A stretch of DNA of 16,874 nt, from positions 1 to 16,874 of the IMG/VR virus record IMGVR_UViG_2740892443_000003. One strand, 5' to 3'. This DNA comes from a virus. Lineage: Duplodnaviria > Heunggongvirae > Uroviricota > Caudoviricetes. Numbering within the stretch: position 1 is the first letter of the stretch; every line of letters begins with the position of its first letter. Shown one piece after another: positions 1,078 to 16,498 of the stretch. Position numbers and translations under genes: made by a program. Under the pieces are notes generated by a model. It did no database searches. It had not been told where the DNA came from and was given only the letters and a program-made list of their open reading frames with translations.

Positions 1078-1182
1078 ATGCACGGTAATTCTGAAATGCA
1101 AAAAATCAACCAAACCAGCGCAATGCCTGAAAAAACTGACGTTCACTGGAGTGGTCGGTTTAGCGTTGCACCAATGCTCGAT
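1078..1182 (+). repeat. attL-side copy of the dusA 5' segment (chromosomal version)
   Basis: Direct repeat of 15461-15565; about 20 mismatches over 105 nt by manual codon-by-codon alignment. Confidence 0.8.
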
Positions 1183-1200
1183 AGGATGTACCGTTGTTGA
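1078..1200 (+). pseudogene. dusA: Displaced original 5' end of dusA (35 native codons, 5 island-derived codons, then TGA)
   Basis: Translates MHGNSEMQKINQTSAMPEKTDVHWSGRFSVAPMLD-RMYRC*. The first 35 codons are about 81% identical in DNA to the start of the intact dusA at 15461. Similarity ends right after the shared ATGCTCGA at 1174-1181. Confidence 0.85.
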
Positions 1201-1222: not shown

Positions 1223-1243
1223 GTGGGAGCCTATTGGGAACCC
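1223..1243 (+). promoter_or_regulatory. Two direct NTGGGARCC repeats just inside the left junction; candidate integrase or RDF arm-type sites
   Basis: GTGGGAGCC (1223-1231) and TTGGGAACC (1234-1242), 11 bp apart. The same 8-mer TGGGAACC recurs near the right junction at 15408-15415. Confidence 0.35.
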
Positions 1244-2279: not shown

Positions 2280-2561
2280 TTAGTGATGTTCTTTGCCCTT
2301 CTGTTTGCCTGTTCTGACCTGTTCCCACTCGATACGTCCTTCTTCTCGTCTTTTGTCTATGTATTCCGCAAGATCCTGAATATTGATGCAACGTTTTGCT
2401 TTTTGTGATGTGCCGATGCGATATGTTGGAACGGGCAACTTACAAGCGTTTGCTTTTGCTTCTGCCGTGGCTGGACTCATGCCAAAGTACTTTTGGCTAA
2501 CTGCTGAGAGTTCAATGTTAGGGGTATTGAATTCAGCCATCAGTAAAAACAAGGTGTTCAT
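2280..2561 (-). CDS. PrtN-family (pyocin-activator / AlpA-like) DNA-binding protein, 93 aa
   Basis: MNTLFLLMAEF...KLPVPTYRIGTSQKAKRCINIQDLAEYID matches the PrtN family pattern as I recall it. Start chosen at the ATG at 2559-2561 with GGAG six nt upstream; the ORF-track start at 2588 is a GTG. Confidence 0.65.
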   Translation of the reverse strand: MNTLFLLMAEFNTPNIELSAVSQKYFGMSPATAEAKANACKLPVPTYRIGTSQKAKRCINIQDLAEYIDKRREEGRIEWEQVRTGKQKGKEHH

Positions 2562-2597
2562 AATTTTCTCCATCAAAACCGGCTGCACCCGGGAAAA

Positions 2598-8097: not shown

Positions 8098-8772
8098 TTA
8101 GGCCTTTATTTTGTATCTTCTTGGTTTTCCTGAGAAAATTACTGTACCAATTATAGAGCAATTACCGTTGATCTTAATGTAAGGTTCAGGCCAGTTTGGG
8201 TTTAATGCTTTGAGGTAACGCTGTGTTCCATCTTCTATCAACCGCTTAAAGGTGGTTTCGCCTGTATCGTGCATCAATGCAATAACGTCGTCACCGTGGC
8301 AGGCAGGGACTTCAGGATCTACAAAAATCATGTCTCCCGGGCGGTACTCATCAATCATTGAATCACCAATCACCCGCAAGATATAAGTCATTTCGCCACA
8401 GGGTACAGGGCAGGGATAAGTTTCTGCTGTGCTCAAATCAACCTCAGAATAGCCAACTTCTTTCCATGCTCCGGCCTGTACCCATGATATGACAGGGACT
8501 AACGTTATTTGTTTGTTAGTGATTGAAACGTCAGGTTTTTTTGTGATGTTCGTTGTCTGGTGTTCTTGATCAAGCCATCCGACAGGCAGGTCGAAACATT
8601 TTTCGATGTGCCGTGCCATGCTGTCACCGATATTTTTAGTTGCACCATCTCCCATAAACCTGCTGGTCTGGGTTGGCTCGCGATCAATCATGGTGGCAAA
8701 GGAAGAATTCCCGCCAACACCATCTCTCAGTTTTCTGGCGTTAGACCGCCGGATGTCATGGACTGTTTTCAT
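8098..8772 (-). CDS. Lambda-cI/LexA-type autocleavable repressor (S24 peptidase C-terminal domain), 224 aa
   Basis: VQAG cleavage-site motif, GDSM serine nucleophile, TFKRL lysine. C-terminus aligns by eye to lambda cI ([22 protein letters not shown] versus TFKRLIEDGTQRYLKALNPNWP). N-terminal HTH region. Confidence 0.9.
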   Translation of the reverse strand: MKTVHDIRRSNARKLRDGVGGNSSFATMIDREPTQTSRFMGDGATKNIGDSMARHIEKCFDLPVGWLDQEHQTTNITKKPDVSITNKQITLVPVISWVQAGAWKEVGYSEVDLSTAETYPCPVPCGEMTYILRVIGDSMIDEYRPGDMIFVDPEVPACHGDDVIALMHDTGETTFKRLIEDGTQRYLKALNPNWPEPYIKINGNCSIIGTVIFSGKPRRYKIKA

Positions 8773-8788
8773 AAAGAAATTAAAACCT

Positions 8789-8807
8789 TTGTACCGATAA
8801 GGTACAA
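8789..8807. promoter_or_regulatory. Operator palindrome TTGTACC-gataa-GGTACAA in the cI/cro intergenic region
   Basis: Perfect 7-5-7 inverted repeat lying over the predicted -35 regions of the divergent promoters. Confidence 0.6.
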
Positions 8808-8812
8808 GTATC

Positions 8813-8840
8813 TTGAAGGTTCATCTCAATCATGTAATAT
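8813..8840 (+). promoter_or_regulatory. PR-like promoter for the cro/baseplate operon
   Basis: -35 TTGAAG (8813-8818), 16-bp spacer, -10 TAATAT (8835-8840). Confidence 0.45.
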
Positions 8841-8859
8841 GTATACCGGAGGTACATAT
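8837..8859. promoter_or_regulatory. Second operator-like palindrome ATATGTA-N9-TACATAT overlapping the PR -10 and transcription start
   Basis: Exact inverted half-sites at 8837-8843 and 8853-8859. Shares the TGTA / GGTACA core with the 8789 and 8027 sites. Confidence 0.45.
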
Positions 8860-8862
8860 TGT

Positions 8863-9231
8863 ATGAAAGCGTATTGGGACTCTTTAACCAAAGAACAGCA
8901 GGGTGAGTTGGCCGGAAAAGTTGGCTCAACACCAGGCTACTTACGGCTGGTTTTCAATGGTTATAAAAAAGCCAGTTTTGTGCTGGCTAAAAAACTTGAG
9001 CAATGCACGTCAGGTGCAATTACGAAATCTGACTTAAGACCGGATATCAACACGCGCCTTGAACAGTCTGCACGGATCATTCAGCGCACGCCGGATGAGG
9101 TTTTACCCGCGCTGGTGCTGGCGGCGACCTGGTTTGATAACGCGGCGCGTGACGCGGACATTATCCGGCGTAATGCCATTACGCATCCCGGCTTTGTGCC
9201 GGTGATCCCTCTGAAGGTGCCAGTGCAATGA
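8863..9231 (+). CDS. Cro/YdaS-like HTH regulator with a C-terminal extension, 122 aa
   Basis: GGAGG Shine-Dalgarno then ATG at 8863. GSTPGYLRLVFNG...SGAITKSDLRPDI fits the YdaS/Cro HTH pattern. The last ~45 codons are GC-rich like the structural genes. The stop overlaps the next start (ATGA at 9228-9231). Confidence 0.6.
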   Translation: MKAYWDSLTKEQQGELAGKVGSTPGYLRLVFNGYKKASFVLAKKLEQCTSGAITKSDLRPDINTRLEQSARIIQRTPDEVLPALVLAATWFDNAARDADIIRRNAITHPGFVPVIPLKVPVQ

Positions 9232-10307
9232 ACGACAATGTCACGCTACGGGTAAATGGCCGGGAGTGGAATGGCTGGACATCGGTGCGCATCGGTGCCG
9301 GTATTGAACGGCTGGCGCGGGATTTCAGTGTGGAGATCACTCGCCAATGGCCGGGAGATGAGGGTATCACCACGCTTCAGCCGCGCATTAAAAACGGTTC
9401 AAAAGTGGAAGTGCTAATTGGTGATGAGCTGGTGATCACCGGCTGGGTGGAGGCGACTCCCGTTCGTTACGATGCCCGTTCGGTCAGCACCGGTATTGCC
9501 GGACGTAGTCTGACGGCTGACCTGATTGACTGTGCAGCCGAACCGACACAGTTTAACGGACGCTCGCTGGTGCAGATTGCGCAGGCGCTTGCTGCACCTT
9601 TCGGCATTGAGGTGGTGAACAGCGGTGCGCCGTCGGGTGTTATTCCTGATGTTCAGCCTGATCACGGTGAAACGGTGATTGAGGTAATCAACAAAATACT
9701 CGGTCAGCAGCAGGCGCTGGCTTACGACGACCCGCACGGCAGGCTGGTGATTGGCGGTATTGGCTCAACGCGGGCACATACCGCGCTGGTACTTGGGGAA
9801 AACATCCTTTCCTGCGATACGGAGAAGAGTATCCGGGAGCGGTTTTCTGTTTACCAGGTGGCGGGGCAGCGTGCCGGAAACGACGATGATTTCGGTGAGG
9901 CCACCACAACTGCGCTGCGGGCCCGCACAGAGGACGCATTTATTGCCCGTTACCGTCCGATGTATATCAGGCAGACAGGGCAGGCCACGGGGGCAGGCTG
10001 TATTGCGCGTGCTGACTTTGAAGCCCGACAACGGGCGGCGCGGACGGATGAAACCACTTATGTGGTGCAGGGCTGGCGACAGGGTAACGGTACGCTGTGG
10101 CAGCCCAACCAGCGGGTGATTGTCTTCGATCCGGTCTGTGGTTTCGACAATACCGAACTGCTTGTTTCGGAAGTCACGTTTACTCAGGACCAGAACGGCA
10201 CCCTGACGGAAATCCGTGTCGGCCCGCCTGATGCTTATCTGCCTGAACCCGAAGATCCCGGCGCGCGGAAAAAGAAAAAAGCCAGAGTACAGGAGGACCC
10301 GTTCTGA
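9228..10307 (+). CDS. Baseplate hub protein (Mu gp44 / P2 gpD-like), 359 aa
   Basis: Size and position immediately upstream of a gpV-like gene in conserved Mu/P2 baseplate order; family membership not confirmed by motif. High GC. Translationally coupled on both sides. Confidence 0.6.
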   Translation: MNDNVTLRVNGREWNGWTSVRIGAGIERLARDFSVEITRQWPGDEGITTLQPRIKNGSKVEVLIGDELVITGWVEATPVRYDARSVSTGIAGRSLTADLIDCAAEPTQFNGRSLVQIAQALAAPFGIEVVNSGAPSGVIPDVQPDHGETVIEVINKILGQQQALAYDDPHGRLVIGGIGSTRAHTALVLGENILSCDTEKSIRERFSVYQVAGQRAGNDDDFGEATTTALRARTEDAFIARYRPMYIRQTGQATGAGCIARADFEARQRAARTDETTYVVQGWRQGNGTLWQPNQRVIVFDPVCGFDNTELLVSEVTFTQDQNGTLTEIRVGPPDAYLPEPEDPGARKKKKARVQEDPF

Positions 10308-13553: not shown

Positions 13554-13994
13554 ATGCAGAAATATATTTTCAGTGCCGATAAAAATGCGTTTTTCCCTGT
13601 GGAGCTTAAAATCGCTTATCAGGAATCCGGCGAATGGCCCGATGATGGAATCGAAATTGACGACACTGTTGCCGCCGAATTTATGAAGGAAGCACCAGAA
13701 GGAAAATACAGAGGTGTCATCGACGGAATGCCAGCATGGATTGATATTCCACCGCCAACTCATGAGGAACAAATTGCCGCAGCCGAACTGGAAAAGCAGC
13801 AATTGATTAATCAGGTCAACGAATACATAAACAGTAAGCAATGGCCTGGTAAAGCGGCGATTGGTCGCCTGAAAGGTGAGAAACTGGCGCAATATAATTT
13901 GTGGCTGGATTATCTGGACGCACTGGAGCTGGTCGATACTTCCGGTGCGCCAGATATTGAATGGCCTACGCCTCCGGCAGTTCAGGCCAGATGA
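13554..13994 (+). CDS. Tail fibre assembly chaperone (Tfa, Mu U / lambda Tfa-like), 146 aa
   Basis: MQKYIFSADKNAFFP... with a C-terminal ...PDIEWPTPP motif typical of Tfa proteins. Confidence 0.8.
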   Translation: MQKYIFSADKNAFFPVELKIAYQESGEWPDDGIEIDDTVAAEFMKEAPEGKYRGVIDGMPAWIDIPPPTHEEQIAAAELEKQQLINQVNEYINSKQWPGKAAIGRLKGEKLAQYNLWLDYLDALELVDTSGAPDIEWPTPPAVQAR

Positions 13995-15372
13995 CATCCG
14001 GCGCGGTGCTGGTATCTGTTGCCGCCACCGCGTCAATGTAATCCAGCACAGCGTTAAGCCGGGTTGTTTCTGCCTGCGTCAGTTTACGTCCGGCCTGCAA
14101 TTTCAGTTGAATCAGACTGATGGAAGCCATAGCAGCATCAATCAGCGACTGGCGCTGTGCTTCTGCCGCGTCTACTGCGGCGCTATGTTGTGCCTCGGTA
14201 TCCGTCACCCATTTCTCACCATCCCATTTATCGTATGGCGTTAACGGGGCGATAGTGGTTGTATTATCAGGGTAATCACCCGGAGCTGTGATTTCTTTTG
14301 ATTCCCCTGTTTCGGTGCTAAAAACGATTTCACCGCGATGGTCTGGCATATATTCCCATGATTTTAAATCTGCTGAACGGCAGATAACCTGGGCTACTTC
14401 CTCAATACTAAAACCAGCCTCAAATAAGCGACTTGCCCCTTCTCTACGCAAATCATGGTATCGCAGATCCTTAATACCTAATTTGCTTCTTACCCTCTGA
14501 AATCCCGCAGTAACAGAAGTGCTGTTATATGGAAAAATGAATTCCGATTTTTGGGGCTGTCGTTGGACGATATCCCAGGCTTCCCCAAGCAAGGCTACTT
14601 TCATGTGGTTGCCTTCCTTTTTGCGTGGATCTTTCCTGTCTCTTACGAGTATAGATTTTTGTTCCTGGTCGAGATCTTCCCATCGTAACCGGCATACTTC
14701 TCCGATTCGCATACAGGACCACACAGAAAATTTGAGGATATCAACGAACGGAATTTTTGAGCATTTATGAGTAGATCGTTGTTGAAGGCCTTCAATGAGC
14801 ATGTCCAGTTCATCAGATGCTGGTCTACGATTACGACGGTTTGATTTACCAATTAAACCAAGTTTAAGTAGATATGGACGAGCGGCTTTTGCTGGGTTTG
14901 ATGTGTAATTAATTCCATATACAGGTTTGGCAGCATCCAGAACACTGCCAAGATAACTAACATCGTGGCTAACTGTAGCTGGACCTGCACCAGCGTTGTT
15001 TCTTAGCCTGCAATGTTCAATTACGTCATTTTCTGTCAGTTCAGATAGTTTGATCGCGGAGATGTCACTATCCATAAGCAGTTCCAGCACATATCTTTTA
15101 GTACGGCCTGCTTTACCTCCGGCATTTGGGTCATTTAAATATTTGTGTAGTAAGTCACGGACTGTAAGTCCGTCAACTGCATTTGATGATGGAATGCCAT
15201 ATAGATCTAATTCCATCACTTTCTGTGTGCCCCATGTTTTGGCATGAGCATGTTTAGGGAATGTTTTGCTTTCCCTGTAAGTGATAACACCTTTTTCTTT
15301 GATAATCACATTACAGCGATAGCGTGGTGTGCCATCGGATTTTAGTCGTTTCTCTATGTTATAGTACGCCAT
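13966..15372 (-). CDS. int: dusA-associated tyrosine integrase with an in-frame C-terminal Tfa-like extension, 468-aa ORF
   Basis: Catalytic motifs by eye: R in IGEVCRLRWEDLD, H-x-x-R in YHDLRREG, Tyr in SWEY. After ...YMPDHRGE the frame continues about 110 codons into Tfa-like sequence (...KWDGEKWVTDTEAQ...APDVIWPELPEA). Its 3' end overlaps tfa convergently by 29 bp. Confidence 0.8.
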   Translation of the reverse strand: MAYYNIEKRLKSDGTPRYRCNVIIKEKGVITYRESKTFPKHAHAKTWGTQKVMELDLYGIPSSNAVDGLTVRDLLHKYLNDPNAGGKAGRTKRYVLELLMDSDISAIKLSELTENDVIEHCRLRNNAGAGPATVSHDVSYLGSVLDAAKPVYGINYTSNPAKAARPYLLKLGLIGKSNRRNRRPASDELDMLIEGLQQRSTHKCSKIPFVDILKFSVWSCMRIGEVCRLRWEDLDQEQKSILVRDRKDPRKKEGNHMKVALLGEAWDIVQRQPQKSEFIFPYNSTSVTAGFQRVRSKLGIKDLRYHDLRREGASRLFEAGFSIEEVAQVICRSADLKSWEYMPDHRGEIVFSTETGESKEITAPGDYPDNTTTIAPLTPYDKWDGEKWVTDTEAQHSAAVDAAEAQRQSLIDAAMASISLIQLKLQAGRKLTQAETTRLNAVLDYIDAVAATDTSTAPDVIWPELPEA

Positions 15373-15392
15373 TACACGACCTCGTTATTTCG

Positions 15393-15427
15393 GGTTCCCA
15401 TAAAACGTGGGAACCTGTGCGGGAACC
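15393..15427. promoter_or_regulatory. Palindrome GGTTCCCA-N7-TGGGAACC plus a third GGGAACC copy between int and dusA; candidate operator or arm-type site
   Basis: Exact 8-bp inverted arms at 15393-15400 and 15408-15415, with GGGAACC again at 15421-15427. Lies 20-55 bp upstream of the int start and 35-70 bp upstream of dusA. Confidence 0.4.
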
Positions 15428-15460
15428 TAACGCGAGAAAAATAGCCTGAAATGTTCAAAA

Positions 15461-15565
15461 ATGCACGATAATCATGAAACACAAAAAATTAATCAAACCA
15501 GCGTGATGCCTGAAAAAACTGGTGTTTACTGGAATTCTCGGTTTAGCATTGCTCCTATGCTCGAC
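15461..15565 (+). repeat. attR-side copy of the dusA 5' segment (island-supplied replacement)
   Basis: About 81% identical to 1078-1182; continuous with the rest of dusA. Confidence 0.8.
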
Positions 15566-16498
15566 TGGACGGACAGACATTGCCGCTATTTCTTGCGTCT
15601 GCTTTCCCGCAATACGTTGCTGTATACCGAAATGGTGACCACAGGGGCGATTATTCACGGTAAAGGTGATTACCTGGCGTACAGTGAAGAAGAACATCCG
15701 GTAGCGTTGCAACTCGGCGGTAGCGATCCGGCGGCGCTGGCACAGTGTGCGAAGCTGGCAGAAGCGCGTGGATATGATGAGATCAACCTGAATGTCGGCT
15801 GCCCGTCTGACCGGGTGCAGAACGGCATGTTTGGTGCGTGTCTGATGGGTAATGCGCAGCTGGTTGCCGACTGTGTGAAAGCGATGCGCGATGTGGTGTC
15901 GATTCCAGTGACGGTGAAAACGCGTATTGGCATCGATGACCAGGACAGCTATGAATTTCTCTGCGATTTCATCAACACTGTTTCCGGCAAAGGCGAGTGT
16001 GAGATGTTTATCATCCACGCACGTAAAGCCTGGCTTTCGGGGTTAAGCCCGAAAGAAAACCGTGAAATCCCGCCGCTCGATTATCCGCGTGTGTATCAAC
16101 TGAAGCGTGACTTTCCGCATCTGACAATGTCGATTAACGGTGGTATCAAGTCGCTGGAAGAGGCCAAAGCACACCTGCAACATATGGATGGCGTGATGGT
16201 CGGGCGCGAGGCGTATCAGAATCCGGGTATTCTGGCGGCGGTAGACCGGGAGATCTTTGGTTCCTCGGATACCGATGCCGATCCGGTGGCGGTAGTGCGC
16301 GCCATGTATCCGTACATTGAGCGTGAACTCAGCCAGGGGACGTATCTCGGCCATATTACCCGGCATATGCTGGGTTTGTTCCAGGGTATTCCTGGCGCGC
16401 GGCAGTGGCGGCGTTATTTAAGTGAAAATGCCCATAAAGCGGGTGCTGACATTAACGTGCTGGAACACGCGCTCAAACTGGTGGCGGATAAGCGTTAA
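15461..16498 (+). CDS. dusA: tRNA-dihydrouridine synthase A, 345-aa ORF (alternative start at Met16, 15506)
   Basis: Full-length Dus-family protein. The first 35 codons differ from the K-12-like stub at 1078, consistent with 5' replacement by the island. Confidence 0.95.

Follow-up and report, generated by a model that had tools for sequence, protein, structure and literature searches.

The five copies of the motif TGGGARCC located at the two ends of a 14.4-kb Escherichia coli prophage remnant are, with high probability, arm-type binding sites of the dusA-specific tyrosine integrase (Int) encoded beside them. This reading draws on sequence comparison, in which the layout of the copies in the phage attachment site, the boundary of the inherited module, the selective conservation of the sites, the recurrence of the arrangement across the integrase family and the covariation of the motif with the N-terminal domain of Int were observed. 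The window, by which we mean the whole 16,874-nucleotide stretch of DNA that was analysed (16.9 kb), runs from yjbM through the prophage remnant to dusA, and the features that define the island junctions are as follows:

1-714: yjbM (DUF2713), E. coli chromosomal flank to the left of the island
1078-1173 (to 1181 with the core), plus strand: native dusA 5' end, displaced to attL
1174-1181, plus strand: attL crossover core ATGCTCGA
15461-15556 (to 15564 with the core), plus strand: dusA', the dusA 5' end that the island supplies in place of the native one, flanked by the P-arm sites and the core
15557-15564, plus strand: attR crossover core ATGCTCGA, within dusA
15461-16498: dusA, to the right of the 14.4-kb prophage remnant

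The two copies of the dusA 5' end align as far as the common ATGCTCGA and then diverge, and the RefSeq annotation places a short 'tRNA-dihydrouridine synthase' fragment at the displaced copy. ATGCTCGA is the core of the dusA att repeats (PMC4482086, PMC6328086), which both cores in the window match, and a replaced dusA 5' end is the same arrangement as that described in PMC4482086 and PMC8409611. Look-alike dusA 5' ends that share a core constitute the published signature of dusA-specific integrase elements (PMC4482086, PMC6328086) and, since this signature was found at 1174-1181 and 15557-15564, the junctions lie inside dusA and beside the dusA fragment and not at the motif clusters. The initial annotation, which had placed the motifs near the att sites, was right that copies sit beside both ends, while the junctions themselves are the ATGCTCGA cores, away from the motifs. 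The island is a member of the dusA-associated integrase (DAI) elements: int adjoins dusA divergently, insertion occurred in the 5' end of dusA with a new 5' end supplied, semiconserved att repeats around ATGCTCGA are present at both island ends, and a PrtN-domain recombination directionality factor (RDF) is encoded across attP from int. When the attP core was rebuilt from the left side of attR and the right side of attL (window 1174-1189 joined to 15545-15564), a perfect inverted repeat, TCCTAT-GCTCG-ATAGGA, was found centred on the crossover, its attB counterpart being imperfect (CCAAT-GCTCG-ACTGG). The TCCTAT/ATAGGA pair around the core is a candidate for the core-type integrase sites.

The motif copies are distinct from this core-type sequence and are arranged as three on one side of the island and two on the other:

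15393-15400, minus strand: site P-a (GGTTCCCA; minus-strand reading TGGGAACC), the palindrome's inverted half, 20 bp upstream of the int ATG
15408-15415, plus strand: site P-b (TGGGAACC), after a 7-nt spacer following P-a
15420-15427, plus strand: site P-c (CGGGAACC), 12 bp after P-b, with GGGAACC at 15421-27
1224-1231, plus strand: site P'-a (TGGGAGCC), beginning 43 bp past the attL core
1235-1242, plus strand: site P'-b (TGGGAACC), outer edge of the int-attP module

The sequence reads exactly as had been described, with copies at both island ends and a palindrome whose arms are 8 bp long and extend no further. TGTGC separates P-b from the GGGAACC of P-c. Measured inwards from the island junctions, the right-hand cluster is at 130-164 bp and the left-hand pair at 43-61 bp. 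Exact TGGGAACC occurred three times in the 16.9-kb window against 0.47 expected, and TGGGARCC four times against 0.94 expected with none outside the two terminal clusters, the fifth copy being the CGGGAACC at 15420-15427 beside exact TGGGARCC copies. With one mismatch allowed, 10 copies were found window-wide against 12.8 expected and there was no enrichment, so the signal consists of the local clustering of exact copies and not of overall abundance. This missing window-wide enrichment would favour a chance clustering of a short G+C-rich word. However, the count outside the window that had been proposed as a check on enrichment gave a single TGGGAACC and three GGGARCC in a 50-kb E. coli chromosome sample, and at the rate from this sample the Poisson probability of five GGGARCC within 95 bp is approximately 5e-14. 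Chance clustering is further opposed by the same architecture in dozens of independent lineages; its probability is negligible and the comparative data presented below refute it.

Arm-type sites are a textbook feature of this recombinase class, and the excised form of the element shows their expected arrangement, with several copies of a short motif on both attP arms at tens to ~150 bp from the core. The same integrase is found in ten sequenced E. coli phages at 97-99% DNA identity and, in phage mEp460, both island ends are contiguous, giving an intact attP in which the core has three sites on its int side and two on its far side. From the int ATG, the mEp460 attP consists of 20 bp, the inverted P-a and the direct P-b and P-c (12-bp period), then ~130 bp including dusA', the core ATGCTCGA flanked by TCCTAT/ATAGGA and, after a further 42 bp, the direct P'-a and P'-b (11-bp period). 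This five-site array spans ~233 bp, and the copies are found at both island ends because integration splits it at the core. Alignment of six phages that carry this integrase in four different neighbour-gene contexts showed that homology stops at window 1242/1243, right after the last copy, and the outermost site is therefore the edge of the unit inherited with int. The five sites of the window are identical to those in functional phages; P'-a is conserved in six phages, and SKA5 carries TGGGATCC. If Int acts like its lambda counterpart, its N-terminal domain (60 residues) would engage the arm sites and its C-terminal domains the core. This bridging would fold attP to give the recombination complex, and the PrtN-like factor RdfN would set the direction of recombination. 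Int would accordingly be predicted both to bind the five sites and to require them for recombination.

An IMG/VR scan using the integrase alignment found nothing but near-identical elements of E. coli, and these served for a polymorphism footprint based on 72 E. coli-type loci representing 29 haplotypes of the int-dusA' interval. Across these haplotypes, 2 of 23 columns were variable in the sites in comparison to 8 of 12 in the spacers (Fisher p=7e-4), with zero variable columns in P-c and an invariant P-a in all haplotypes except one, that of locus L016. A haplotype with an 89%-identical integrase had changes at five of the seven spacer bases, while the spacer length and all three sites were kept. 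Only this contrast between sites and spacers was significant; the comparison of sites to all other intergenic columns was not (p=0.11), owing to one further segment that was also conserved:

15428-15460, no strand assigned: A-rich segment between P-c and the dusA' start, 1 of 33 columns variable across the 29 haplotypes

As this segment is conserved like the sites, conservation alone is not specific to them and other elements are probably present there; it could hold bending, accessory-protein (RdfN/IHF) or promoter elements. In enteric lineages, the equivalent segment has AAAAT-like tracts ~10-11 bp apart, and the A-rich segment of Xenorhabdus contains AAATAGCC twice at a 10-bp period. In L016 (Escherichia sp. 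MOD1-EC7003), both palindrome halves carry the same A-to-G change (GGTCCCCA ... TGGGGACC) and the third copy is GGGAACC. A symmetric double change of this kind may stem from gene conversion acting between the two sites or from constraints on their pairing.

Copies on both arms were also found in the joined attP of seven lineages. In six further lineages, for which attP was contiguous or could be joined, two direct copies occurred near the int ATG at an 11-12 bp period, and at least two more were located ~40 bp past the core. Four of these lineages also had an inverted copy, complete or partial, preceding the direct pair. Each of the six was associated with its own form of the motif:

Yersinia YeP1: GGGGTGCTG
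Morganella IME1369_02: TGGTGTCC
Klebsiella Kp4882-1: GGGGTGCTG
Pseudoalteromonas C5a: GGGTGACT
Vibrio element: CGTACT
Shewanella M16-3: GGGGCAC

A genomic survey of 78 dusA-integrase loci, with one genome per species, identified a GC-rich 8-mer repeated at an 11-12 bp period no more than 70 bp from the int ATG in 63 loci, in comparison to 1.8% of control windows and 0.85% of shuffles. A direct repeat of the P-b/P-c type holds the same position in 63/78 dusA-integrase loci. At the ends of related dusA islands, whose conservation the initial annotation had raised, the layout recurs with a motif specific to each lineage.

Two groups of loci showed additional variation. In the marine loci L062-L093 and L015, a second repeat class composed of GCAATTCA / CGAAATTC-like units was observed 60-110 bp upstream of int, in three to four copies at a 10-11 bp period between the arm-type pair and dusA', and these units are candidate directionality-factor sites. 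Paired arm-type repeats were kept in L013/L014 (Klebsiella phage Kp4882-1), L050, L068 and L070, in which no AAAATGCAC dusA' start was found in the 115 nt upstream of int (nor, for Kp4882-1, in the joined record ends); this start is conserved in other enteric lineages. The joined Kp4882-1 sequence was also without the ATGCTCGA core. These loci may have another target or may represent trimmed records.

The proteins that could recognise the sites are encoded on either side of the reconstructed attP:

2280-2588, minus strand: PrtN-family protein (RdfN type; PF11112, E=4e-23)
13966-14385, minus strand: tail-fibre-assembly sequence (Caudo_TAP), fused in frame to the truncated int by deletion
14386-15372, minus strand: truncated dusA-specific tyrosine integrase, residues 1-329 of 365
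15193-15372, minus strand: predicted arm-binding N-domain, Int residues 1-60

The N-domain is predicted to form a three-stranded sheet and a helix. No arm-binding family was found when Int residues 1-156 were searched against Pfam at E<=10, the sole match being a sub-threshold one to Int_N over residues 72-147; a profile search of PDB sequences with the N-domain gave no match, and an NCBIfam scan gave only weak Xer-type catalytic-domain matches. Motif distance was correlated with the distance between Int residues 1-40 when residues 66-330 were controlled for (partial Mantel 0.43, p<=0.001; the highest of 999 permutations was 0.24), while the reverse test, the rest of Int given the N-domain, gave -0.04. 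This outcome suggests that motif specificity follows the N-terminal domain of Int, with the caveat that the int 5' end is physically linked to the P-arm sites that it adjoins, and mosaic recombination could produce some covariation without function. Residues in predicted strands 2 and 3 of Int corresponded to the motif as follows:

C[NT]V[IL][IV]KEKG[VI]IT: motif GGGARCC
CTVGVK..GKY: motif GGGGTGC
CTVGIK..G.H.HRE[ST]: motif GGTGT[AC]C
CSVS.K..GKR: motif GGTGTCC

Xenorhabdus hominickii DSM 17903 possesses two elements (L036 and L045) with different motifs, each matching its own Int type. The presence of two such motifs within a single strain speaks against the sites belonging to a host factor.

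Directionality factors commonly bind short direct repeats, and the repeats could alternatively be the binding sites of RdfN instead of the integrase. RDF function has been proven for the RdfN homologue of a Vibrio dusA element (PMC8409611), and by analogy the PrtN-family protein at 2280-2588 is taken to be the cognate RDF of the element studied here. RdfN homologues co-occur with dusA integrases in 101 phage records and match them in taxonomic spread. Against their being the ligand, the sites are present on each arm and make up the outermost part of attP. In lambda, the RDF sites lie on one arm. The RDF sites of KplE1 are likewise confined to one arm (PMC2951348). Moreover, the motif varies together with the Int N-domain even when the remaining Int is accounted for, and the sites of PhiR40_1 and PhiR55_1 are identical though their RdfN proteins are only 85% identical. 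We consider RdfN quite unlikely to be the protein that reads these repeats. The proposal that they are arm-type integrase or directionality-factor sites can thus be narrowed to the integrase, as favoured by the occupancy of both arms, the module boundary, the conservation and the covariation, with the directionality factor being less likely.

The palindrome between int and dusA had been proposed as a shared control element. It can be envisaged that the main role of GGTTCCCA-N7-TGGGAACC is that of a transcriptional operator at which a dimeric regulator controls the divergently oriented int and dusA', and that its likeness to the other copies is secondary. The palindrome does lie within the 88-bp int-dusA' interval, its halves share the A-to-G change in L016, and LexA-box-like sequences were found in the int-dusA' interval of 4/78 loci against ~1.4 expected. 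In the related Vibrio dusA element, the cloned int upstream region is an active Pint and the element supplies a new dusA promoter (PMC8409611). However, the inverted copy was present in only 22 of the 78 related loci and hence is absent from most lineages, its spacer varies from 5 to 8 bp between lineages, and in Kosakonia, Phytobacter and Pluralibacter it differs from the facing direct copy, with all half-sites remaining within TGGGRRCC. Such an operator would also leave the third copy and the two copies past the core unexplained. A scan of 15250-15650 for sigma-70 promoters and terminators found none, and a looser scan yielded nothing beyond two weak, overlapping candidates, minus-strand TTGATT-17-GATTAT and plus-strand CTGAAA-15-GATAAT, which lie within dusA'. 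With an inverted copy found in a minority of loci, half-sites that drift independently and no sigma-70 consensus promoter, a perfect palindrome serving as the operator of int and dusA is not upheld, and a primary operator function is very unlikely. From these comparisons, the palindrome is best seen as one inverted arm site beside a direct one and not as a unit in itself.

An alternative is that the inverted repeat folds as an RNA hairpin within the int 5' leader and so controls its translation or stability. Although the hairpin is present in the minimum-free-energy fold, 20 nt upstream of the int start codon, this fold is no stabler than that of shuffled sequence (z = -0.30), the window has no Rfam match, the integrase family as a whole does not conserve the inverted copy, and both the direct copies and those of the other arm would be left unexplained. 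We rejected this idea as highly improbable on the basis of the z-score and the Rfam result.

With the palindrome regarded as part of an arm-type array, an effect on transcription can still be envisaged as a secondary consequence. Since int faces attP, its upstream region is the P arm, and the P-arm cluster occupies most of the 88-bp int-dusA' interval; bound Int would dampen int transcription and possibly that of dusA' too. In KplE1, arm sites overlapping Pint lead to negative autoregulation of int (PMC2951348). The coupling of integrase autoregulation to dusA expression put forward in the initial annotation is plausible from the geometry and the published precedent of KplE1 and the Vibrio element. 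A stronger version, in which the P-arm cluster is a bidirectional operator through which Int sets both int and dusA' levels and the Int-Tfa fusion could persist as a domesticated dusA regulator, appears unlikely; if true, it would tie a host tRNA-modification enzyme to the recombination state of a prophage. In other lineages, LexA-box-like sequences, including a perfect CTGTATATATATACAG, were observed no more than 200 bp upstream of int in L085, L086, L040, L090 and L177, which comprise some Vibrio, Colwellia, Serratia and Enterobacter elements. Their sequence suggests SOS control of int in those lineages; no LexA-box-like sequence was found in the int-dusA' interval of the window.

The element in the window is incapable of excision by its own integrase. 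Its int lacks the segment containing the catalytic His and Tyr (GHRS...WQVY) and in this respect departs from DAI elements with a competent integrase. The sites found here are therefore intact relics of a locked-in remnant. The chimeric int open reading frame (13966-15372) has its junction at approximately 14385/14386 and contains a complete Caudo_TAP domain, and the resulting Int-Tfa fusion retains the N-domain, as the element retains all five sites. In intact relatives, dinI and a DNA invertase gene are located between int and the tail-fibre genes, and both were deleted here together with half of the invertible tail-fibre segment. The int-tfa junction was shared by none of 5,426 complete E. 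coli genomes, in which no single location covered at least 80% of window 13900-15600. Elsewhere in the island (window 8098-10307), an S24-peptidase (CI/LexA-like) repressor gene has baseplate (gp46, J/gp47, YmfQ) and tail-fibre genes almost immediately after it; head, terminase and lysis genes are absent. The 14.4-kb island is a heavily deleted prophage remnant.

The arrangement resembles that of lambda (P1, P2 and P'1-P'3 in an attP of ~240 bp), in which a short motif unlike the core is likewise present in five copies distributed over both arms. In both systems adjacent copies are about one helical turn apart, attP is of similar size (~233 bp here), and an extra N-terminal beta-sheet-plus-helix domain, predicted in the present case, precedes the core-binding and catalytic domains. 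Lambda differs in that its motif is unrelated, whereas here the sites are split 3+2 with one inverted copy beside the int start, the N-domain has no detectable sequence similarity to that of lambda Int, and the arm between the sites and the core encodes a replacement 5' end for a host gene. In addition, lambda int points towards attP from the xis-int operon, whereas here int faces attP. In the satellite phage P4, repeated sites for Int are found on both sides of the core and extend over the region upstream of int, as the predicted arm sites do here, and P4 int is negatively regulated by Int and by the RDF Vis. P4 differs in its integrase lineage, its DUF4102-type N-domain and its tRNA-gene target. 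In the KplE1/HK620 IntS-TorI system, int is transcribed away from att with arm-type sites in its upstream region, and the int and RDF genes are separated by attP and, in the prophage, do not share a transcript (Panis et al. 2010, PMC2951348), as in the present element. KplE1 differs in integrase family, RDF (TorI in comparison to a PrtN-like protein) and target (tRNA in comparison to dusA), and the overlap of the int promoter with Int sites was demonstrated there, whereas only weak promoter candidates were found here.

In gene content the island corresponds to the described DAI elements (PMC4482086, PMC8409611), with which it shares an int beside dusA, a replaced dusA 5' end, the ATGCTCGA att repeat and a PrtN-like RDF. 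Those studies (Farrugia et al. 2015 and Durand et al. 2021, respectively) defined only the 21-bp core repeats and the RDF, and neither mentions arm sites; a full-text literature search for dusA with arm-type returned only general mobile-element papers. Beyond these two accounts, the present analysis adds the map of the arm sites and the correspondence between motif and N-domain.

For the window itself, a remnant with a dead integrase, the result is mostly a tidy annotation. Its wider use lies with the family, as dusA-specific integrases are found in prophages and genomic islands of >200 bacterial species. The mapped arm sites give the full extent of attP (~233 bp), from which island borders and the minimal functional attP become predictable, and the map accounts for the inheritance of the int-attP module as a single block. 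The correspondence between the motif and strands 2 and 3 of the N-domain also provides a set of natural specificity variants (GGGAACC, GGGGTGC, GGTGTAC, GGTGTCC, GGGGTAC and GGGGCAC) with which the reading of DNA by this domain may be tested.
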